21,218 bases of DNA from Candidatus Bathyarchaeia archaeon. GTDB lineage: Archaea; Halobacteriota; Syntropharchaeia; Alkanophagales; Methanospirareceae. The DNA is taken from contig DATKWH010000105.1 in NCBI GenBank assembly GCA_035529655.1, positions 1 through 21,218 on the forward strand, read 5' to 3'. Positions 67-8,106 of the stretch are shown piece by piece. Positions within the stretch are counted from its first letter, which is position 1, and each line of letters starts with the position of its first letter. Below the pieces are notes generated by a model, which ran no database searches, was not told the origin of the DNA, and saw only the letters and a list, made by a program, of their open reading frames with translations. The position numbers and the translations under genes are program-made.

Positions 67-987
67 TTATTCTATCACTTTCTTAAGTGGTCCTATTATC
101 CTGGGATACCCCACAGCCATCATGTGGCATCCAGCAGCCGGCGTTCCTTTTAGATACTCTAAGAAATCGGTGAAGAACTCCACGTTGATTCTGTCTACTT
201 CCTCCTTTCTCTTCTCCTTGTCCGTTATCTCCTTCGACTTCTTCAGGTTCGCGAGGTAATCCGGTGGGACATCCACACCTGCTACGTACTCATCGAAGAA
301 TTTAGCCGCTCCGTAACTCTTAGCCGGGAATATTCCAACCAAAATCGGGACGTCCACTTTCCCCAATTCGTTAAAGAACTTGTCCAGAATATCCTGGTAA
401 TAAACGACCTGTGTTTGCAGGAATTCCACGCCAACATTGATCTTTCTCTTCACCTTGGCGACTTCGGATTTTAAATGCGCCGCTCCGGGTGCTGCCGCAC
501 CGCCCACATGCAATTTCGGTGGATCCTCTATCTCATTACCCCCAAGGTCTTTCCCTTCATCCACTATTTTCCGTATCATGTGTATCAGCGTGGTAGAGTC
601 CAGATCGAATACCGGCTTTGCGTCTGGCGTATCGCCCAGTGATACGTGGTCACCTGCCAATGCCAGGATATTCTTGAGTCCTAGAGTACCCGCACCAAGC
701 ACGTCGGATAAAAGTGCCATTCGATTCCTGTCCGAGCACCTGAGCTGGTATACGCACTCCATACCTGTCTCTAATTCGATTTTATACGATGCTGCCATGC
801 TATTAACATAAGCGAAACTCTGTGGATTGTCAGTTACGTTACATGCGGTTACTAAACCTATCAAATCTTTTGCTGCTGCAATTGGCTCGTTGACATTCCC
901 TGCTTTTTCCGGCTCTAACTCACCGGTGAAGACGTATTTCCCCTCGCTCAATTCTTTCATCATCTGGCTATAAATTCCATCGGCCAT
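67..987 (-). CDS. metF: Methylenetetrahydrofolate reductase, MetF type (acetogen/ANME-like)
   Basis: 306-aa ORF that reads as a MetF-type TIM-barrel reductase (NVTDNP, ALAGDH, VEFLQTQVVY segments). It lies 21 nt downstream of metV on the same strand, with a GGAGGAG motif in the spacer. TAA stop. Confidence 0.88.
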   Translation of the reverse strand: MADGIYSQMMKELSEGKYVFTGELEPEKAGNVNEPIAAAKDLIGLVTACNVTDNPQSFAYVNSMAASYKIELETGMECVYQLRCSDRNRMALLSDVLGAGTLGLKNILALAGDHVSLGDTPDAKPVFDLDSTTLIHMIRKIVDEGKDLGGNEIEDPPKLHVGGAAAPGAAHLKSEVAKVKRKINVGVEFLQTQVVYYQDILDKFFNELGKVDVPILVGIFPAKSYGAAKFFDEYVAGVDVPPDYLANLKKSKEITDKEKRKEEVDRINVEFFTDFLEYLKGTPAAGCHMMAVGYPRIIGPLKKVIE

Positions 988-1008: not shown

Positions 1009-1791
1009 TCACGCTTTTTCCTCTTCTTCCTTCTCTGGTTTCTTAGCGAACATCAGAGACGTGTATCCCTTGATAGTGTTAAAGTTCATCATAGCGCCCA
1101 TCATGTCCATCATACTCATAGGCTCTTCTAACTCGAACAGACGCGGTCTCTTGCATTTACTCCATTCGTGCGGAGCTCGCATTTCTATGAAATCGTCGAG
1201 TTCGCCGAGTTTCTCCATTCGCTTATAGATCTTAACCCAGGCGCAGTCCTTATCAGGGTCTATTTCACATTTATCATCAACCCGGACACCACCGCAAGGA
1301 CCGTTCATCAATCCTTTGCCGCATGAAGTTAAAGGACAGATACCAGCAGTTTTGCCCAATTCACACATGCCGCATGATTGACAGGTCTCCTTGAACTTGA
1401 AAGGCCCGCCACCTACGAGTCCTATTGCGTCATTTGCCGGATAGACGTCCTTCGCAATACCCATCTCCTCATCTGTGTACTCGGTCACTACTTGCACGCC
1501 ATCGCCGCAACTCATCACTAACAAAGCATCGCAGTTCTCAACCTTATCGCGTTCTTTCTGCAAAAATATCGAACACTTCTCAGTATCACAGGCCTGCATA
1601 CCCAGGGGCATGCTAATTTTGGTGACTGCCTTCCCTTCTTTCTCCAGTTTATCACCCATCTCATTTACCGCTTTCTTGTCACCAGCATGATAGAAGGTGG
1701 CACACCCTCCGCAGCCCAGTACTACTATGTTCTTCTTTCCCTCAAGGTAGCCCAGAATCTCTTCCATAGGTTTTTGCTCTTGCGCAATCAT
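1009..1791 (-). CDS. metV: MetV, Cys-rich small subunit of methylenetetrahydrofolate reductase (MTHFR C-terminal-like domain)
   Basis: Cys-rich segments (GCGGCATFYH, MSCGDG, CQSCGMCELGKTAGICPLTSCGKGLMNGPCGG) typical of MetV partners of MetF. I chose the ATG at 1791 because GAGGAGGAG sits 3 nt upstream; the ORF-track start at 1839 adds 16 aa and would contain that RBS. Confidence 0.82.
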   Translation of the reverse strand: MIAQEQKPMEEILGYLEGKKNIVVLGCGGCATFYHAGDKKAVNEMGDKLEKEGKAVTKISMPLGMQACDTEKCSIFLQKERDKVENCDALLVMSCGDGVQVVTEYTDEEMGIAKDVYPANDAIGLVGGGPFKFKETCQSCGMCELGKTAGICPLTSCGKGLMNGPCGGVRVDDKCEIDPDKDCAWVKIYKRMEKLGELDDFIEMRAPHEWSKCKRPRLFELEEPMSMMDMMGAMMNFNTIKGYTSLMFAKKPEKEEEEKA

Positions 1792-1993
1792 TTTCTCCTC
1801 CTCATATACCTCCTTAACAAAATTAATGATATATAGCATGTTGCATAGGGGGATATATAAGCTTTTCTATTTCGAGGGACTGTCAAGTTGTTGGGTGCTG
1901 GTATTAGTATCACCAACTTAAAACCGTATTTTTCGCAAACGAATAATAATTCTCAGACTGAATGTGTCATAACACCCAGCAACTTTACAACCA

Positions 1994-2192
1994 CACAAAA
2001 CCAGAAAGTTTTTATAGCCACAGTTCTCTATAAACAAACAGCCTTGTTTTAAAAAATACAAGGCTTTCTTTTTAAAGTGGAAGAAAGATAAAATTAGCCA
2101 TGAAGAGCTAAGCCTAATCTGGCTTGAAGGGCAGACTGCGCTAGTTTTACTATCTCTGCCCCAACACGTTAACATGGAAATCCGGAGGAGAT
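1994..2192 (+). pseudogene. Decayed duplicate of the hydrogenase promoter, 5' UTR and first ~37 codons of the small-subunit gene
   Basis: 2120-2157 aligns with 3184-3222 at 35 of 38 positions with one 1-nt indel (tggcttgaagggca / gactgcgct / gtt / tac / atctct blocks). The 5' UTR aaagtggaagaaagataaaattagccATG (2074-2102) matches aaagtggagaaagaagaagaaaaATG (3134-3159). The BRE/TATA-like caaaaccagaaagtttttata (1996-2016) matches caaaaccgaaaagcttaaata (3078-3098). The copy has a stop after 3 codons (ATG AAG AGC TAA) and a frameshift. Confidence 0.8.
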
Positions 2193-2208
2193 ATGGCGCC
2201 TCAGATAA

Positions 2209-2727
2209 ATGGGAACTATGCCCATGAAAGGAGAGCGATATAATCTAATAAAAGAGAAATGGGATATTGAAAATGGGCAGTTCTTTACTCAGGAACTCCC
2301 CACGATAATAATGGGCAGTGCGATCTTTGTGGGCATTCAGAAGCTTGCAGAGTCAATAGTGGGGGCGGATGGTGCGGCAGTGATCTTTTACGAAGCGGGC
2401 AAGAAGGTAGGTGTCCTTCGAACAAAGTCCTGGAAGGACGAATGGGAGTTAGAGGGGCAGGAATTCATCGAAAAGCTGGAAGAGTATCTTGCAGAGCTTG
2501 GCTGGGGCAAGTTCTGTGTTGATCTTGAATCCCTCGTCGTTACGATGGAGAATTCGTTCGCAGCAAAGAATTATGGTGACTCGGATGTCCCGGTCTGTCA
2601 TTTCCTGCGCGGGTATTACGCTGGAATGGGGGAAGTATTAACAAATCGAGCGCTGGATGCAGAAGAGACAAAATGCGCAGCGTGTGGAGCCGACCTTTGT
2701 GAGTTTGTGCTTAAACCGATTGAATAA
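2209..2727 (+). CDS. V4R-domain (4-vinyl-reductase-like, small-molecule-binding) protein
   Basis: 172-aa ORF. The C-terminal CHFLRGYYAGMGEVL...EETKCAACGADLCEF matches the V4R domain pattern. An in-frame TAA lies immediately upstream (2206-2208); alternative ATGs at 2218 and 2224. Confidence 0.78.
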   Translation: MGTMPMKGERYNLIKEKWDIENGQFFTQELPTIIMGSAIFVGIQKLAESIVGADGAAVIFYEAGKKVGVLRTKSWKDEWELEGQEFIEKLEEYLAELGWGKFCVDLESLVVTMENSFAAKNYGDSDVPVCHFLRGYYAGMGEVLTNRALDAEETKCAACGADLCEFVLKPIE

Positions 2728-3012
2728 TTAATCACACAGAACCCTATCCAAATCATCAAAAAACCGTATCAGTAACTTTGTTCTCTCATTGTCCATGTCT
2801 AATACGAACGTTCTCATTTGTTTGCCTATGTTGTTTTCTTTCACAATATTCGCTTTTAAAAGTGGCTCGATTACGCGTGCGACACTGGAGTGAGAAAGCC
2901 CGGTAACCTCTGCAATGCCGGACAGATACGTTATGGTGTCACGATTTCGTATCAGATGCTCTAAAACAATAAGCTGCGCGTTTCTTCCAAATATCTTCTC
3001 AACTTCGTTCAT
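2728..3012 (-). CDS. Small winged helix-turn-helix transcriptional regulator (MarR/ArsR/TrmB-like)
   Basis: 94-aa ORF with an HTH-like segment TYLSGIAEVTGLSHSSVARVIEPLLKANIVKE followed by a wing-like KQMRTFVL. Divergent from the hydrogenase operon (145-bp spacer). Its stop codon directly abuts the V4R stop (TAATTA at 2725-2730). Confidence 0.7.
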   Translation of the reverse strand: MNEVEKIFGRNAQLIVLEHLIRNRDTITYLSGIAEVTGLSHSSVARVIEPLLKANIVKENNIGKQMRTFVLDMDNERTKLLIRFFDDLDRVLCD

Positions 3013-3084
3013 CTATAGACCAACCCAAATTTATAAAATGTGGTAGGTTTTAAATACTTTTTTGTTTCTGTTTTGTGCAAAACC

Positions 3085-3099
3085 GAAAAGCTTAAATAA
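3085..3099 (+). promoter_or_regulatory. Candidate BRE/TATA promoter of the hydrogenase operon
   Basis: Purine-rich gaaaag followed by cttaaataa (3091-3099), about 58 nt upstream of the ATG at 3157. This would give a ~30-nt leader containing GGAG (3139-3142). No experimental support. Confidence 0.45.
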
Positions 3100-3156
3100 C
3101 ACATCCGCCCATTAATAACCAAAGTCGTCGAAAAAAGTGGAGAAAGAAGAAGAAAA

Positions 3157-4185
3157 ATGAGTCTCGAAGAAATAAATTTGATATGGCTTGAAGGGCAAGA
3201 CTGCGCTGGTTGTACAATCTCTATTAAGCAGGCAAGCAACCCCACGCTTATTGATGTGATAACCGGAGCTATTCCAGGGCTTGGAGGGTTAAAAATCGCG
3301 TACCATCCAACCTTGATGTTCGAATGGGGAGAAGATGCAGCGAAGGTACTCATTGATGCCATGGAAGGGAAGTATGATCCGTTTGTATTGATTCTCGAGG
3401 GAGCAGTCCCTGATGAGGCAAAGGCAGGAGAAGGCGTTTTCTGTGGCATTGCCGACTATGAGGAGAAACTTCTCACGCTCAGCGAAGTTATTGACAGTTT
3501 ATCGAAGAGGTGCGCCGCCGCAGTCGCCATTGGGACATGCGCTTCTTATGGTGGGATCCCCCACGGGAATCCGAATCCAACGGGGGCGAAGGGGCTTCTG
3601 GACTACTTAGGAAAAGATTGGACTGGTGGCTTAGGGCTTCCGGTCATCTGTATACCTGGTTGCCCGCCCAGACCTGATAATATAGTTCAGGTCTTAGGTC
3701 AAGCGGTGCTTGCTGCAAGAGGATTAGCACCACTTCCGGAGCTTGACGAGTGGCACCGACCTGTGGCCCTCTACGGCTACACAATGCACGAACTCTGTCC
3801 GATATGTGGATTCTATGCGGAGGGCACGGATGCCCATGGCTTTGGTGATACCGGCTGTCTCGGTGCAATAGGCTGCAAGGGAATCATAACGAACTGCAAC
3901 AATACGACATGGGCAGATGGATACGGTGGATGTACGGGAACAGGGGCTCCCTGTTTCGGCTGTACTCATCCCGACTTCCCAGACGCACCAACGTCACCGT
4001 TCTTCGCTAAAGCGCCTGCGATGCCATTCATCATTGAGAACATTAAGGGCATGCTCGCGCATGCGGAGATGGGATTCGAGCGATTCAAACCAGTCCTCGA
4101 GTCGCTTCTGCCACAGATACCAGAATTCATTGAAGAGCTAGATAAGCAGATGGAAGAAGAGAAAGACAAAGGGAGGAAGATATAA
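3157..4185 (+). CDS. [NiFe]-hydrogenase small subunit, no Tat signal peptide
   Basis: 342 aa. The N-terminus goes straight into the proximal-cluster motif LIWLEGQDCAGC. Other cluster motifs: GTCASYGG, PGCPP, HELCPIC, CLGAIGC and C...CTGTGAPCFGC for the medial/distal clusters. No RRxFxK plus hydrophobic region, and an in-frame TAA at 3097-3099 with no start codon between it and 3157. Confidence 0.93.
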   Translation: MSLEEINLIWLEGQDCAGCTISIKQASNPTLIDVITGAIPGLGGLKIAYHPTLMFEWGEDAAKVLIDAMEGKYDPFVLILEGAVPDEAKAGEGVFCGIADYEEKLLTLSEVIDSLSKRCAAAVAIGTCASYGGIPHGNPNPTGAKGLLDYLGKDWTGGLGLPVICIPGCPPRPDNIVQVLGQAVLAARGLAPLPELDEWHRPVALYGYTMHELCPICGFYAEGTDAHGFGDTGCLGAIGCKGIITNCNNTTWADGYGGCTGTGAPCFGCTHPDFPDAPTSPFFAKAPAMPFIIENIKGMLAHAEMGFERFKPVLESLLPQIPEFIEELDKQMEEEKDKGRKI

Positions 4186-4186
4186 A

Positions 4187-5992
4187 ATGGGATTCTTAGA
4201 TAAGCTAAGAGGAGGACCAAAAGAGGAGGCAAAGGCAGCCGCGCCCGGACCCGGCGGAGAGCGGGAAATAACAATAGAGCCAATAACGCGAATAGAAGGG
4301 CATCTTGGCGTTCACGCGAAGTTAGACATCGGTGCTAAAAAGGTCACCGACGCATATGCTTACAGCCCGATGTTCAGGGGTTTTGAGATTATTCTTGTGG
4401 GTAGAGAACCATCAGAAGCGGTTATGATTACACAGCGGGCTTGTGGTGTTTGCCCCGTGCCTCATGGTCTCGCATCGGTAAACGCCGTTGACCAGGCATA
4501 TGGAGTATCGCCACCGCCGATGGGCGTACTTCTTAGAGATCTCGTTCACGGTGCTGAGCAGTTATATGATGCTGAGGTTGGTGTTCTCAACCTTGAAGGT
4601 CCGGACTACAGCGAGGTTGCCGTGAAGAAGTTCAATCCTGACTGGTGGGGCGAAGCGCAGAATACAAAGGCATCGAGGTCAGATGTTCACGGTTTTGCTA
4701 CCATCGCAGATATAATGACTGCACTTAACCCGCTGGCTGGCGAGCTGTATCTCAGGTCACTTTTAGTCCAGAAAGCGGGACACAATATGGCTGCGATCTT
4801 CGGTGCAAAGCACCCGCACGTTCATTCCTTTGTTCCCGGCGGAATCGCAAAGATAAACCTCTCGGCATCGGACATTGAATCATATCTTACGCTGCTCATG
4901 CGGCACATTGCATTTACAAAGGAGCTGGTCACCGTTACGGACGATCTCCTGAATTTCGTGCTTGCACAGGGCTATGCGGATGTAGGAGCAAGAGATATCA
5001 ATCTCTGCTCTGTGGGCGGATACAACGATCCTGAAGCGTATTCAGCGAAATATGAAGAGATGACCGATTGGGGTCGTAAGCGGTTAGTGTCTCCAGGAGT
5101 TATTTTGAATGGCGAACTTGTCACAACGGACCTCGTGGAGTTCAATGCTGGCGTGCGAGAATTCATCGGTAGAGGCTGGTATTCAAGTGAGTGGGAACAA
5201 GAAGTCAAAACAGACCCGGCAGGAAATGAGATTGCGTACGAGCATCCGTGGAACAAGCGCACGATTCCAGAGCCCGGCGAGTACGGTAAATGGGGTTCCA
5301 AGTATACCTGGGTTACGTCGCCACGGTGGAATAACTGGAAGGGCGATGGCAAGAACCACGTCCTAGAACTCGGACCGCTTGCGCGGATGTGGGTGACAGC
5401 GAAGGCTGGCCTTGTGCCTGCGTCCACGGGATCAAGCCTCAAGTTCGAACTGCCGGCAGCCGTTATACCGGGATTCAAGTATGCAGATAAGATGGAGTTC
5501 GAATGGAAGATCCCTGCGAAGCCAAATACAGTGGAGAGGGTCAGAGCACGGGCATATTATCATGCATACACCGCATACTGCGTCTCTGGTCTGGTAATGA
5601 ATGCTTTAGAACTCATGACGGCGGGTAAGACATCAGTTTGGACGCCGTACGAGAAACCAAAGGAAGGTATCGGGTTTGGTGCAGTTGAAGCTATGCGTGG
5701 CTCGTGCCTGCACTGGTGCGTCATGAAGGATGGTGTCATTTACAACTACCAATACCATGCACCGACGACATGGAACGCATCGGGTAGGGATCCAGAAGAA
5801 CAGCCAGGACCCTACGAACAGGCACTTATCCAGTCGCCGATCACTGAAGCTGGAGATCCCGCAGCGTGGAAAGGCGTCGATATCGTCAGGACGATAAGAA
5901 GCTTCGACCCGTGCTTGGGATGTGCAGTTGCAGTGCATATAGGTGACCGAGTCGTAAAGCACGAGCTGCTACCGTTCGCTACGCCAGAGTAA
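4187..5992 (+). CDS. [NiFe]-hydrogenase large (catalytic) subunit with cleavable C-terminal extension
   Basis: 601 aa with RIEGH, L1 motif RACGVCPVPH, and C-terminal SFDPCLGCAVAVH followed by a 17-aa tail. It starts 1 nt after the small-subunit stop, with GGGAGGAAG upstream. Confidence 0.95.
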   Translation: MGFLDKLRGGPKEEAKAAAPGPGGEREITIEPITRIEGHLGVHAKLDIGAKKVTDAYAYSPMFRGFEIILVGREPSEAVMITQRACGVCPVPHGLASVNAVDQAYGVSPPPMGVLLRDLVHGAEQLYDAEVGVLNLEGPDYSEVAVKKFNPDWWGEAQNTKASRSDVHGFATIADIMTALNPLAGELYLRSLLVQKAGHNMAAIFGAKHPHVHSFVPGGIAKINLSASDIESYLTLLMRHIAFTKELVTVTDDLLNFVLAQGYADVGARDINLCSVGGYNDPEAYSAKYEEMTDWGRKRLVSPGVILNGELVTTDLVEFNAGVREFIGRGWYSSEWEQEVKTDPAGNEIAYEHPWNKRTIPEPGEYGKWGSKYTWVTSPRWNNWKGDGKNHVLELGPLARMWVTAKAGLVPASTGSSLKFELPAAVIPGFKYADKMEFEWKIPAKPNTVERVRARAYYHAYTAYCVSGLVMNALELMTAGKTSVWTPYEKPKEGIGFGAVEAMRGSCLHWCVMKDGVIYNYQYHAPTTWNASGRDPEEQPGPYEQALIQSPITEAGDPAAWKGVDIVRTIRSFDPCLGCAVAVHIGDRVVKHELLPFATPE

Positions 5993-6039
5993 GTAGCCCG
6001 TCAAAGATAAGCACAAATTGCTATAGATAGGGAGGAGGG

Positions 6040-6122
6040 TACCGCCACCAGTCGTTGAGATGGACGAGGTACTCTTCCGCTTTTATTTCTATACGATAGA
6101 TTATTCTGAGCTTTCCTCCTCA
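6040..6122 (-). pseudogene. Decayed internal fragment of a hydrogenase maturation protease gene
   Basis: 6072-6120 aligns ungapped with 6506-6554 inside the intact protease gene at 41 of 49 positions. The minus-strand translation **GGKLRIIYRIEIKAEE compares with NTGGKLGTIYHTEIKAEE. Weaker similarity continues to about 6040. Confidence 0.75.
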
Positions 6123-6265: not shown

Positions 6266-6751
6266 TCAGGTTGAGCGGTCCTGCTGTAATTCGTCCAGAA
6301 TGATTTCGACCGCGCTATGGATCGCAGTTGCGACTTCCGGGCTCATTTCTTCACCCAGTTGGGTGTCTTGGACTTCGCAACCAATAACGACAATTGTGGG
6401 TGGAAGCGTGCCGATTGTCTTAGCGAAGCTGAGGAGCTCCTCTAACCGAGCTTCGTGGATGCTGATGTTGAAAGGGTTCGCTCCTCCAGGCTTCATCTCT
6501 TCCACCTCTTCCGCTTTTATTTCCGTGTGATAGATCGTTCCAAGCTTTCCTCCTGTATTAACGGCGTCAGCAAAGATCACATGATCGTAGTCACTGAGGT
6601 CAGGTGCCAGTGTTATGCCACACAGTCCGACATCTCGTGCTTCCACGTTCTCAGGTAGATCTCTCGTCAGTAGTGCTTCGACTACTCGTGGGCCAAAGCC
6701 ATCGTCACCCATATATTTGTTCCCTATACCAGCCACAAGAATTTTTGTCAT
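6266..6751 (-). CDS. [NiFe]-hydrogenase maturation endopeptidase (HyaD/HybD/FrcD family)
   Basis: 161 aa with N-terminal ILVAGIGNKYMGDDGFGPRVV, characteristic of the family. Convergent with the structural genes. A TATA-like GTATAAAAAA lies about 25 nt upstream of the ATG on the minus strand. Confidence 0.9.
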   Translation of the reverse strand: MTKILVAGIGNKYMGDDGFGPRVVEALLTRDLPENVEARDVGLCGITLAPDLSDYDHVIFADAVNTGGKLGTIYHTEIKAEEVEEMKPGGANPFNISIHEARLEELLSFAKTIGTLPPTIVVIGCEVQDTQLGEEMSPEVATAIHSAVEIILDELQQDRST

Positions 6752-6918: not shown

Positions 6919-8106
6919 TCAGAAGTCTGTCATCACCCGGTATTGGTCTATCTCTTCCTTCATCAACCTCAAATATCTCCTGGCCGTGCCTTCTACATCT
7001 CGTACGTTTGTTATTCCTCGTCCAACGATTAAAATATCCGCACCGCTTTTTATCGCTTCCGGTGCGTTCTCTTCCCGTATCCCGCCGGCAACCGCTACCA
7101 GTATCTTACCGCCTATTCGCTTTATCTCCTCTATGTTTCCCCAGGCATGTTTCGCCCCCAGTTCTTCCACGTCTATCGCACGATGCAGTTCCACTACGTC
7201 CGGCATCAACCCGCCTACGCTTAACTCACTCAGCAGGTCTATCGGACTTGCCACATTCAACATATCTAAGGCGGCGTAAATGCCTGTCTTCTTTGCCTCT
7301 TCTATCGCCTTCTCTATCGTTCTGAGAGGTGCTAACCCTGAGATCACCACGGCGTCAGCACCCGAATCCGCAACCATCCGCGCCTCCAAGTTGCCGGTAT
7401 CAAGCGTCTTCAAATCGGCAACCACGAACGTTTCAGGCTTTATCTCCTTTATCTTTCCTACTATATCCACGCCGTATCTCTTTATCAATGGCGTGCCGGC
7501 CTCTATAATAAGATGATCATTTCTCGGCAGCTCTCTCACCACTCGTTCCATCAGCTCCCACTTGGGAATGTCCAGAGCGACCTGCAGATACGGTGGGTCC
7601 CATAATTTTGTCACTTTCATGCCCAGTGAAGGATGCCTCGATCTGTCCTTCTCATATAATACTTTCTTAATATCCGGAAAACCTTCCATAGCCCTCTTTA
7701 TTGCTAACTTCGCAGATCCGTAATTGTACCGATAGATTTTATTATAATCCTCAGCTTGGGGATGCATGAACACACTTACGATAATCACATAATCCTCTGC
7801 CTTGTCTTCCGGTATAACTCCCTCCTCCACGGAATCGGCAACCGCTTTTGCTATTGCACTCTGCGCAGGTCCAAATATCTTCTCCGCATCCTTCATGTTT
7901 CGTACCGTAACCTTCGGCACAATTAACGTAGAAGGCTTAACCGGAAGATTTGGCCTTAACACCGCAAACAGCGGTGTATGCCCCGCGGACATTTGACTTA
8001 AGGCGTTCGTGAATGCCACACCTACAGGCCCGTATTTATCCCCGATTATCAAATCAATGTGTGCAACTTCAGATCCTTCCCCTATTAATGCTTCACCCAC
8101 GTACAT
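6919..8106 (-). CDS. fae-hps: Bifunctional formaldehyde-activating enzyme / 3-hexulose-6-phosphate synthase (Fae-Hps)
   Basis: 395 aa. The N-terminal Fae-like half begins [22 protein letters not shown]. The C-terminal OMP-decarboxylase-fold Hps half contains [18 protein letters not shown] and VAVAGGI. Confidence 0.9.

Follow-up and report, generated by a model that had tools for sequence, protein, structure and literature searches.

Results

Organization of the MetV-hydS interval

The DNA analysed (hereafter the window, 21,218 nucleotides at its full length) carries a V4R-domain gene and a small winged-helix gene (wHTH) between MetV and hydS, the small-subunit gene of a hydrogenase operon. 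An earlier note had recognized that a dead piece of the hydS 5' end precedes V4R and points the same way as the real gene, which leaves the V4R-wHTH pair bracketed by two hydS copies; our analysis bears out this description. The features of the locus are as follows.

1854-1865, minus strand: BRE/TATA promoter of MetV, AAAGCTTATATA (exact consensus match)
1874-2157, plus strand: lineage-specific segment of the MetV-V4R spacer, composed of an orphan stretch (1876-2075) and the hydS relic (blastn break points)
2005-2016, plus strand: consensus archaeal promoter element AAAGTTTTTATA (exact match to the promoter consensus of the genome)
2040-2074, plus strand: presumed leader, with an 8-bp hairpin AGCCTTGT / ACAAGGCT, an A-rich loop, then a T-run (folding, inverted repeat I1)
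2076-2157, plus strand: hydS relic (copy A), RBS region and codons 1-22 of a small-subunit allele (alignment, profile)
2158-2223, plus strand: native V4R 5' leader, CGTTAACATGGAAATCCGGAGGAGATATGGCGCCTCAGATAA... (alignments; kept in relatives that have no relic)
2224-2727, plus strand: gene for a V4R-domain protein of 167 aa (Pfam PF02830, called genes in identical contigs, homologues)
2728-3012, minus strand: gene for a small winged-helix (MarR-like) regulator of 94 aa, convergent with V4R (weak Pfam MarR_2 match)
3087-3098, plus strand: BRE/TATA promoter of the hydrogenase operon, AAAGCTTAAATA (conserved in L005, L038 and L006)
3140-3222, plus strand: copy B, RBS and first 22 codons of the working hydS (ATG at 3157; gene 3157-4185)

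On the left side, homology to all relatives ends just past the MetV promoter, at 1873-1875 (alignment, and blastn boundaries with loci L036, L037, L038 and L047). The V4R start codon is placed at 2224 by its homologues, and not at 2209 as first proposed, which puts it 66 nt rather than 17 nt past the end of the homology. The MarR_2 match of the wHTH gene is below the curated cut-off of the family; the gene is the conserved partner of V4R in all loci that carry the pair (called here filled loci) and in Methanoperedens-like contigs. In distant taxa the V4R-wHTH pair is not hydrogenase-specific, and a dedicated role as hydrogenase regulator is thus not established. The hairpin at 2040-2074 has a predicted folding energy of -14.7 kcal/mol (z = -3.6), and small A-loop hairpins are seen at the same position in several hydrogenase leaders. 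An Rfam scan of 1700-3400 gave only a sub-threshold snoRNA match, which was judged to be due to chance.

Extent and significance of the repeat

The two copies had been described as a decayed direct repeat of about 190 bp that included promoter, leader and gene start. Only the core of that repeat holds: 2076-2157 is homologous to 3140-3222, for a true length of about 82-85 bp. Local alignment of 2074-2157 with 3133-3222 gave a score of 70, compared with 18.6 +/- 2.4 in 500 shuffles (maximum 27), which is far above the shuffled background (z about 21), and a profile made from 20 hydS 5' ends matched window positions 2076-2159 with E = 1.7e-13 (48 bits). Two direct-repeat families returned by the repeat finder, D1 and D2, cover the same ground. 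In hydS coordinates the repeat spans -17/-23 to +65, its end at 2157 coinciding with the end of codon 22. Copies A and B are about 80% identical, with 14 substituted positions and one indel over codons 1-22; the value of 35 identities in 38 positions, plus an indel, given previously is right for 2120-2157.

The outer arms behave differently from the core. For the promoter and leader arm (1994-2072 against 3076-3132), the global alignment score was reached by 135 of 1000 shuffles and is not significant. For the tail arm (2158-2192) it was reached by 352 of 1000; this arm is not part of the repeat, and from about 2163 the tail is alignable with sequence upstream of V4R in relic-free relatives. 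The motif AAAGNTTWWATA, common to both supposed arms, is a general promoter consensus of the genome, found also at the MetV promoter and elsewhere (10 sites in the window compared with 2.9 expected). Chance, or a promoter and RBS consensus common to both places, is therefore a true account of the outer arms only. For the core we give this explanation practically no credence: it is refuted by the shuffling and profile scores above, the hydS codon register is kept in the relic for 22 codons, and an orthologous copy of the relic is present in L052.

Copy A is a non-functional hydS fragment

Read in the hydS frame, copy A gives ISHEELSLIWLEGQ(-1 nt)DCASFTIS, to be compared with MSLEEINLIWLEGQDCAGCTIS. 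Its start codon is ATT (2093-2095), derived from ATG, codon 14 has lost 1 nt (after 2133), and Gly18 and Cys19 are replaced by Ser (2143-2145) and Phe (2146-2148) respectively. The last change also created TTTTACTAT inside the relic, a candidate new promoter.

Segment 2076-2157 is a non-functional relic of the 5' end of a hydS allele, fused to the V4R leader. It has significant homology to part of hydS, in codon register, with an abrupt end at 2157 (the junction with the V4R leader is at 2157/2158-2162). It is inherited: L052, an independent contig, carries an orthologous and less decayed relic at 484-565 with the identical junction, which is absent from L005, L036-L038, L047, L051, L054 and L057-L060. 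All five changes specific to the window relative to the L052 relic are nonsynonymous or indels.

The L052 relic (69 bits) has an intact ATG and no frameshift, and shows no private change relative to the hydS consensus; the 52-aa ORF beginning at this relic gave no candidates in a protein search. Compared with the hydS gene of L052 it has seven differences, five of them synonymous, one Ile/Leu and one Cys/Phe; the probability of at least five synonymous differences out of seven is P = 0.005-0.013. This bias argues that the relic derives from another functional hydS allele, and the proposal that it is a decayed copy of the resident gene is not supported. The window and L052 relics differ by four substitutions and one indel, none synonymous. 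Together, the synonymous bias in L052 and the nonsynonymous changes in the window indicate a divergence filtered by selection before the truncation, and decay after it. The synonymous pattern, which rests on only seven differences, could also follow from replacement of the resident hydS after an intragenomic duplication. A nearest-allele search found no allele identical to the relic, which matches L006 in codons 5-9 and the window clade in codons 11-22 and is too short to be placed.

The V4R-wHTH pair in related loci

The earlier note had proposed that the V4R-wHTH cassette was inserted together with the duplication. Comparison with relatives does not support this proposal: at least 10 related ANME-1 loci have the same MetV-V4R-wHTH-hydS order at the same place, with their own V4R promoter and no second copy of the hydS 5' end (L005/L039, L036, L037, L038/L058, L047, L051, L054-56, L057, L059 and L060). 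A profile search (nhmmer) for relics in other filled alleles gave a strong match in L052 only and a weak one in L008; L005, L038, L054, L057, L059 and L060 were negative. The L008 match is of 8.8 bits and was reached by none of 1000 shuffles, so that the duplication could be older or recurrent; the L008 spacer is not alignable with its relatives for dating.

Between the window and its closest relative, homology is continuous from the V4R 5' UTR (2181) through wHTH, the hydrogenase promoter, hydS and hydL, and the cassette is therefore old. Homology is interrupted at 1873-1875 and resumes at 2169-2181 (2169 with L051; 2181 with L036, L037, L038 and L047), leaving 1874-2180, relic included, as the lineage-specific part. 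The MetV-V4R spacer is only 12 bp long in L036, L037, L047 and L059, and L038, L058 and L054 have at this site an unrelated spacer which carries the native V4R promoter; the inserts of the window and of L038 show no significant similarity. When all hydS upstream regions were searched on both strands for the source of 1876-2075, only a marginal 24-nt match was found, in L007 (z = 4.2), and blastn of 1876-2076, L052:1-496, L051:1-258 and the L038 spacer against all loci returned nothing relevant.

The comparison with relatives also revealed an uninterrupted MetV-hydS spacer, as the earlier note had anticipated: L003 and L006 are cassette-free (empty alleles), with spacers of 281 and 438 bp and no remnants of V4R or wHTH in them. 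In the window, 302 bp separate the MetV start from the start of the relic. No excised form, devoid of V4R-wHTH, was present among 10 contigs of the same species. The relic does not look like an ordinary paralogue remnant: about 35 related loci each have a single full hydS match, and the only other second copy, that of L052, is truncated at the same codon.

The locus is mosaic. Identity between the window and L038 is 98% in the MetV 5' region, 79% in V4R, 68% in the wHTH-hydS spacer and 97% in hydS, with a sharp switch at the hydS start. In L001 and L052, a different type of promoter and leader is joined to a near-identical hydS from about -14. A DUF2080 ('transposon-encoded') gene lies upstream in L001. 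The L052 sequence upstream of the relic is unalignable with that of the window, and no MetV is found within 480 nt in L052; assignment of 1876-2075 to an empty-type spacer is thus only putative. In the V4R tree, L051, which has no relic, is closer to the window than L052, which has one, so that further recombination or loss is required.

The promoter of V4R

In the filled loci that have no relic, a TATA box lies about 45-50 nt upstream of the conserved motif TTAACATG. In the window and in L052 the position of this native TATA box is occupied by hydS sequence. The element at 2005-2016, situated 77 nt upstream of the relic pseudo-start and 208 nt upstream of the V4R start codon, is most likely the present promoter of V4R, as judged from its sequence and position. 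The idea that V4R sits behind a copy of the hydrogenase promoter is borne out in part: the native promoter is lost and the nearest consensus promoter is upstream of the relic, but its status as a copy is not demonstrable, since the arm similarity is not significant and the upstream sequence cannot be aligned with L052.

Origin of the junction

We propose, with a probability of roughly 0.55, that the relic results from an illegitimate join between alleles of this mosaic locus, which fused hydS codon 22 to the V4R upstream region and displaced the V4R promoter. The V4R-wHTH cassette would already have been an old resident of the MetV-hydS interval. Recombination between an empty allele (MetV-spacer-promoter-hydS) and a filled allele (MetV-V4R-wHTH-promoter-hydS) would then have produced a single illegitimate join in the common ancestor of this species and of the L052 lineage. 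The most economical route would be one homologous crossover in a conserved flank and one non-homologous end join (homology-facilitated illegitimate recombination), with which the conserved MetV and hydS flanks and the mosaic identity profiles are compatible. The join would have removed the TATA box of V4R, which would now be transcribed from 2005-2016 through a leader of about 185 nt containing the hairpin, the T-run and the dead hydS fragment. A junction microhomology, TCTCT, is possible in L054 only. Empty alleles exist and the MetV-relic distance resembles their spacers, which supports a join between alleles; against it, neither the donor allele nor the origin of 1876-2075 was found in searches across loci. 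The data do not polarise the transfer, since the interval is exchanged in its entirety.

The same final architecture would be obtained, in a viable form of the insertion proposed earlier, if an empty-type ancestor had received a filled-type fragment (V4R leader, V4R, wHTH, promoter and hydS 5' end), the cassette being the inserted DNA. The right end would have crossed over homologously inside hydS or hydL, and codon 22 of the recipient hydS would be the site of an illegitimate join to the left end. Copy A would then represent what the recipient had before: its promoter, its leader and codons 1-22. Such an event would account for the origin of the relic from a hydS allele other than the working copy, for the consensus promoter and leader hairpin at the expected places upstream of it, and for a MetV-to-relic spacing typical of the existing empty alleles. 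We nevertheless find it doubtful: the left end of the donor fragment must happen to lie no more than about 10 nt past the donor V4R TATA box, loci devoid of relics show the cassette to be old and widespread at this site, and both flanks (98% and 97% identical to L038 in MetV and hydS) are those of a backbone whose closest relative is filled; with the interval exchanged as a unit, direction is not polarisable here either. Improbable, in our judgement, is an intragenomic duplication followed by replacement or conversion of the working hydS by another allele. Unequal sister-chromosome exchange would create a tandem V4R-wHTH-promoter-hydS' whose upstream V4R-wHTH was later deleted; alternatively, template switching would disperse a copy of the hydS 5' end. 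The junction is exactly as unequal exchange would give, and homologous recombination demonstrably exchanges hydS alleles, with breaks at the start of hydS, which could explain the synonymous differences. Two or three steps are needed, however, upstream of the relic there is no trace of a first V4R-wHTH copy (no match was found for 1876-2075), and five synonymous differences out of seven would be unlikely even with synonymous change in copy B (about 0.04 by our estimate).

A different question is whether some use, as homology handle and as leader module, has preserved the relic. Recombination between copies A and B might excise or regain V4R-wHTH, switching filled and empty alleles, and incoming alleles might swap the upstream promoter module; as a leader, the relic might couple V4R to transcriptional or post-transcriptional control of the hydrogenase type. 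Between the window and L052, identity is about 89% over the relic and UTR and 78% at V4R third codon positions, which hints at either constraint or a more recent exchange. The absence of private changes in L052 is in keeping with such a use, as is the fact that crossing over before codon 19 would leave a complete hydS there; beyond about -17, the upstream sequences of the window and of L052 are different, as though exchanged by means of relic homology. We regard usefulness as hardly probable: the window copy has five disabling changes, none synonymous, there is no conserved ORF, the same-species contigs include no excised form, the conservation statistics are marginal (about P = 0.04) and could reflect recent exchange, and most relatives manage without a relic.

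Discussion

The relic provides a concrete, datable junction at the ANME-1 hydrogenase locus. Why the hydrogenase operon is distributed patchily is a standing question in the hydrogen metabolism of methane-oxidising archaea. Here, the MetV-hydS interval appears as a set of exchangeable alleles, with or without the V4R and winged-helix pair, whose promoter and leader modules are reshuffled at breaks that fall on the conserved start of hydS, and a putative sensor gene, V4R, has lost its own promoter in this lineage. These observations should be useful for studies of the regulation or population genomics of this hydrogenase.

The earlier note knew of no described insertion mechanism that would leave such a duplication. 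An exotic mechanism is not needed: the structure could come from an illegitimate join with a homologous crossover, from a Campbell-type single crossover or from an unequal exchange. Homology-facilitated illegitimate recombination has been described in naturally transformable bacteria (Acinetobacter baylyi, Streptococcus pneumoniae). The likeness lies in conserved homology on one side and an abrupt join to unrelated DNA on the other, and in a truncated gene piece beside foreign or rearranged DNA, with no need for mobile-element genes; in contrast to those bacteria, the process is only inferred here and is not known to operate in ANME-1. Integrative elements, such as genomic islands in tRNA genes and archaeal elements, insert at the end of a gene, bring a replacement end and leave attL/attR duplications. 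As in these elements, direct repeats of part of a target gene bracket DNA, and the far-side sequence completes the working copy. However, the bracketed DNA has no integrase, element termini or mobile-element genes, the repeats are 80% identical and not identical, and the cassette is present in many relatives that lack the repeat. Target-site duplication by a transposon or IS was rejected: the repeat is of about 82-85 bp with about 80% identity, there is no transposase, the bracketed genes are V4R and a winged-helix gene, and no terminal inverted repeats were present among the inverted repeats found.

A mosaic presence of the NiFe hydrogenase operon, even within species, has been reported in ANME-1 (Laso-Perez et al. 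2023, PMC9894754), as have hotspots of recombination and structural variation (Zhou et al. 2026, PMC13385816). The V4R-wHTH pair, the empty and filled MetV-hydS alleles and the hydS relic are not described in these two articles, from both of which the term 'V4R' is absent. They share with the present case the enzyme, the clade, a locus that is variable among as well as inside species, and an appeal to recombination. The relic looks like an ordinary kind of recombination scar and not the footprint of a new insertion mechanism.

Two copies of the hydS 5' end flank the V4R and winged-helix genes

The contig is of the ANME-1 (Methanophagales-type) kind, and its genes around the hydrogenase operon are:

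67-987, minus strand, MetF
1009-1791, minus strand, MetV
2224-2727, plus strand, V4R-domain protein
2728-3012, minus strand, winged-helix (MarR-like) protein of 94 aa (wHTH)
3157-4185, plus strand, NiFe hydrogenase small subunit (hydS)
4187-5992, plus strand, NiFe hydrogenase large subunit (hydL)
6266-6751, minus strand, maturation protease
6919-8106, minus strand, Fae-Hps

NCBI lists the V4R protein (P0001) of this 21,218-bp contig under 'Candidatus Bathyarchaeia archaeon'; as every syntenic relative was ANME-1/Methanophagales-type, the contig is probably mis-binned. Relatives fetched with hydS came from ANME-1, Syntrophoarchaeum or Methanocellales MAGs.

Local alignment of 2074-2157 with 3133-3222 scored 70, compared with 18.6 ± 2.4 (maximum 27) in 500 shuffles. 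A repeat finder returned the same two blocks, and a profile HMM built from 20 hydS 5' ends (-25 to +120) matched the window at 2076-2159 (E=1.7e-13). The earlier note had described a decayed repeat of about 190 bp bracketing V4R and wHTH. The bracketing is correct and the core of the repeat stands far above shuffled background, but its arms do not: the score of the promoter/leader arm (1994-2072 versus 3076-3132, global alignment) was matched by 135 of 1000 shuffles, and that of the tail arm (2158-2192) was reached by 352 of 1000. The upstream copy, hereafter the relic, is a genuine hydS gene fragment of 82-85 bp. In hydS register it reads ATT AGC CAT GAA GAG CTA AGC CTA ATC TGG CTT GAA GGG CA- GAC TGC GCT AGT TTT ACT ATC TCT, which translates as ISHEELSLIWLEGQ/DCASFTIS, against MSLEEINLIWLEGQDCAGCTIS in the working gene. 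It has lost its start codon (ATT) and one nucleotide, and carries Gly18Ser and Cys19Phe. Working hydS itself has GAT (Asp) instead of Cys at codon 19 in two lineages (L009 and L016); the family is thus not uniform at this proximal-cluster ligand position.

The V4R-wHTH pair is shared with relatives that lack the relic

Related loci were collected with hydS against GTDB genomes, with the V4R alignment against metagenomes, and as V4R homologues; they sort into three structural classes. Filled loci have the order MetV-V4R-wHTH-hydS (L005/L039, L008, L036, L037, L038/L058, L047, L054-56, L059, L060, and the partial contigs L051, L052, L053 and L057). In empty loci MetV directly adjoins hydS, with a spacer of 438 bp (L003) or 281 bp (L006) in which no V4R or wHTH remnants were found; the uninterrupted arrangement thus exists. 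The third class is L001, whose hydS is 99% identical to that of the window, with a DUF2080 'transposon-encoded' gene upstream. This 'putative transposon-encoded protein' (L001:2-121, minus strand, E=2.7e-12) lies directly upstream of the hydrogenase promoter, the contig ending inside the gene, which suggests a mobile element beside the hydrogenase operon.

By blastn, the window and its filled relatives share two colinear blocks. The first comprises MetF, MetV and the MetV promoter and ends at 1873-1875; the second starts at 2181 and runs unbroken through V4R, wHTH, the hydrogenase promoter, hydS and hydL (2181-6092 at 90.5% with L038). Between them, window 1874-2180 is replaced by 12 bp in L036, L037 and L047, and by an unrelated 189 bp in L038. 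The novelty of this lineage is therefore the relic-bearing segment of about 285 bp and not the V4R-wHTH pair, which filled relatives carry at the same site; the proposal of a cassette newly inserted with duplication of its target is not supported.

A V4R and winged-helix pair of about 50% identity was also found in Methanoperedens-like contigs (L043:3971-4758, L044:3971-4684), where the neighbours are a DUF255 thioredoxin-like protein, MacB/FtsX and MtrD. As no hydrogenase adjoins it there, the pair is a portable module and not hydrogenase-specific.

The relic probably derives from another hydS allele

In the partial filled contig L052, whose V4R is 84% identical (aa) to that of the window, the hydS 5' end is likewise present a second time, at 484-565 (69 bits, E=2e-21), and the junction is identical to the window's (...ATCTCTGTCCCCAACACGTTAACATGGAAATCCGGAGGAG). 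This copy retains its ATG, an undisturbed reading frame and Gly18, and has Cys19Phe and several silent states in common with the window relic. It differs from the working L052 hydS at seven codons, five synonymous, one Ile/Leu and one Cys/Phe (P 0.005-0.013 for at least five of seven under unconstrained change). The two relics differ from each other by four substitutions and one indel, none synonymous. Divergence thus took place inside a working gene, and decay followed truncation. On this pattern the relic is read as a fragment of another hydS allele, and not, as the earlier note had supposed, as a worn duplicate of the resident 5' end. At codons 5-9 the relic agrees with the empty-type L006 allele; 66 nt are too short to name a donor. 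Relic and leader are about 89% identical between window and L052, compared with 78% for V4R third codon positions, a marginal hint of constraint or recent exchange.

At the 3'-3' junction of V4R and wHTH in L052 (1143-1245), a 32-bp direct repeat (CAGAATCTTATCCAAATCATCAAAGAACCGT) flanks some 40 additional bp, and the winged-helix ORF is thereby extended to 118 aa. In the MetV-V4R spacer of L008, a distant filled allele, positions 387-476 gave a weak match to the hydS 5' profile in the same orientation (8.8 bits; E=0.22 overall; score reached by 0 of 1000 dinucleotide shuffles of that spacer). This may be an older, far more decayed relic; if so, hydS 5' relics have recurred or have an older origin.

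The native V4R promoter is displaced

From about 2163 (CGTTAACATGGAAATCCGGAGGAGATATGGCGCCTCAGATAA...) the window aligns with the V4R upstream leader of relic-free relatives, and homology to the closest V4R relative, L051 (91% DNA identity), begins at 2169; the last relic codon is therefore codon 22 (2157), to which the native V4R leader is joined. Just upstream of this leader lies a TATA box in L038 (GGTTTATAAAAT), L051 (AAGTTTATATAT) and L054 (TTTTTATATATAA). The window has hydS sequence there instead, and the native V4R promoter has been displaced.

The element AAAGNTTWWATA, shared by both sides of the proposed repeat, corresponds to the BRE/TATA consensus used generally in this genome (one mismatch or none at 10 sites, 2.9 expected). 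Exact copies lie at the following positions and further ones elsewhere:

1854-1865, minus strand, MetV promoter
2005-2016, sole consensus promoter between MetV and V4R
3087-3098, hydrogenase promoter

The MetV and hydrogenase promoters also form an inverted repeat (1854-1872/3080-3098), a shared 19-nt BRE/TATA element with 84% complementarity. A transcript from 2005-2016 would be predicted to start near 2040 and to pass through a hairpin and the relic before reaching V4R at 2224. Folding predicts a hairpin of 8 bp with a U-run after it (-14.7 kcal/mol, z=-3.6). Several genuine hydrogenase leaders have small A-loop hairpins at the same place, so this segment may once have been a hydrogenase leader, which sequence does not prove. 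Co-regulation of V4R with the hydrogenase is plausible.

The MetV-hydS interval is mosaic

DNA identity of the window to the filled locus L038 varies along the interval:

MetV 5' part, 98%
V4R, 79%
wHTH, 88%
wHTH-hydS spacer, 68%
hydS, 97%, switching within about 30 nt of the start codon

Between the window and L038, its closest relative, V4R (window 2224-2727, L038:1287-1790) is far more diverged than its flanks, with 72% aa identity and a DNA trough of 68% at 2381-2580; either the sensor domain would have evolved fast or under diversification, or the allele would have been replaced. L001 and L052 combine another promoter/leader type with a near-identical hydS, homology starting at about -14, and the window and L052 relics are homologous only from -17. 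At least two unalignable promoter/leader types precede near-identical hydS coding sequences, with between-type homology from about -14 of the ATG: that of the window (3013-3156), L005 and L038, and one with hairpin TTCGCCGAAAAAGCGAA (L001:230-365, L037:1400-1517, L052:1560-1687). In the V4R tree, relic-free L051 is nearer to the window than relic-bearing L052. Judged by these identity switches, swapped leaders and tree, homologous recombination evidently exchanges both the interval and its sub-modules, often crossing over in the hydS 5' end, which is very conserved across loci. In codons 7-17 (ATATGGCTTGAAGGGCAGGACTG) silent positions are also conserved from ANME-1 to Syntrophoarchaeum and Methanocellales, which may explain use as a recombination junction or hint at RNA-level constraint.

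Contigs from many MAGs and metagenomes start at or just upstream of hydS (L001, L002, L004, L007, L020, L033; L002 at codon 7), a pattern compatible with breaks in the assembly graph at points of divergence between population alleles.

Origin of the scar

One illegitimate join of an empty-type to a filled-type allele would give MetV - spacer - promoter-like element - hydS'(1-22) | V4R leader - V4R - wHTH - promoter - hydS. The relic starts 302 bp from the start of MetV, a distance similar to empty-type spacers; no match to 1876-2075 was found among the fetched loci. Integration of linear DNA would require one additional homologous crossover, either in MetV (empty-type donor, filled recipient) or in hydS/hydL (filled-type donor, empty recipient, the scenario of the earlier note); both would be homology-facilitated illegitimate recombination. 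The direction of the event could not be polarised, since the entire interval is passed between backbones as one piece. A longer route than the single join would be an unequal sister exchange with a later deletion. In conclusion, the relic is an ordinary scar of recombination at a locus prone to it, and an undescribed duplication-making mechanism need not be invoked. In ANME-1 the NiFe hydrogenase operon is distributed as a mosaic, even within species (PMC9894754), and recombination and structural variation have been described in ANME-1 genomes (PMC13385816); an exchangeable MetV-hydS interval fits both.
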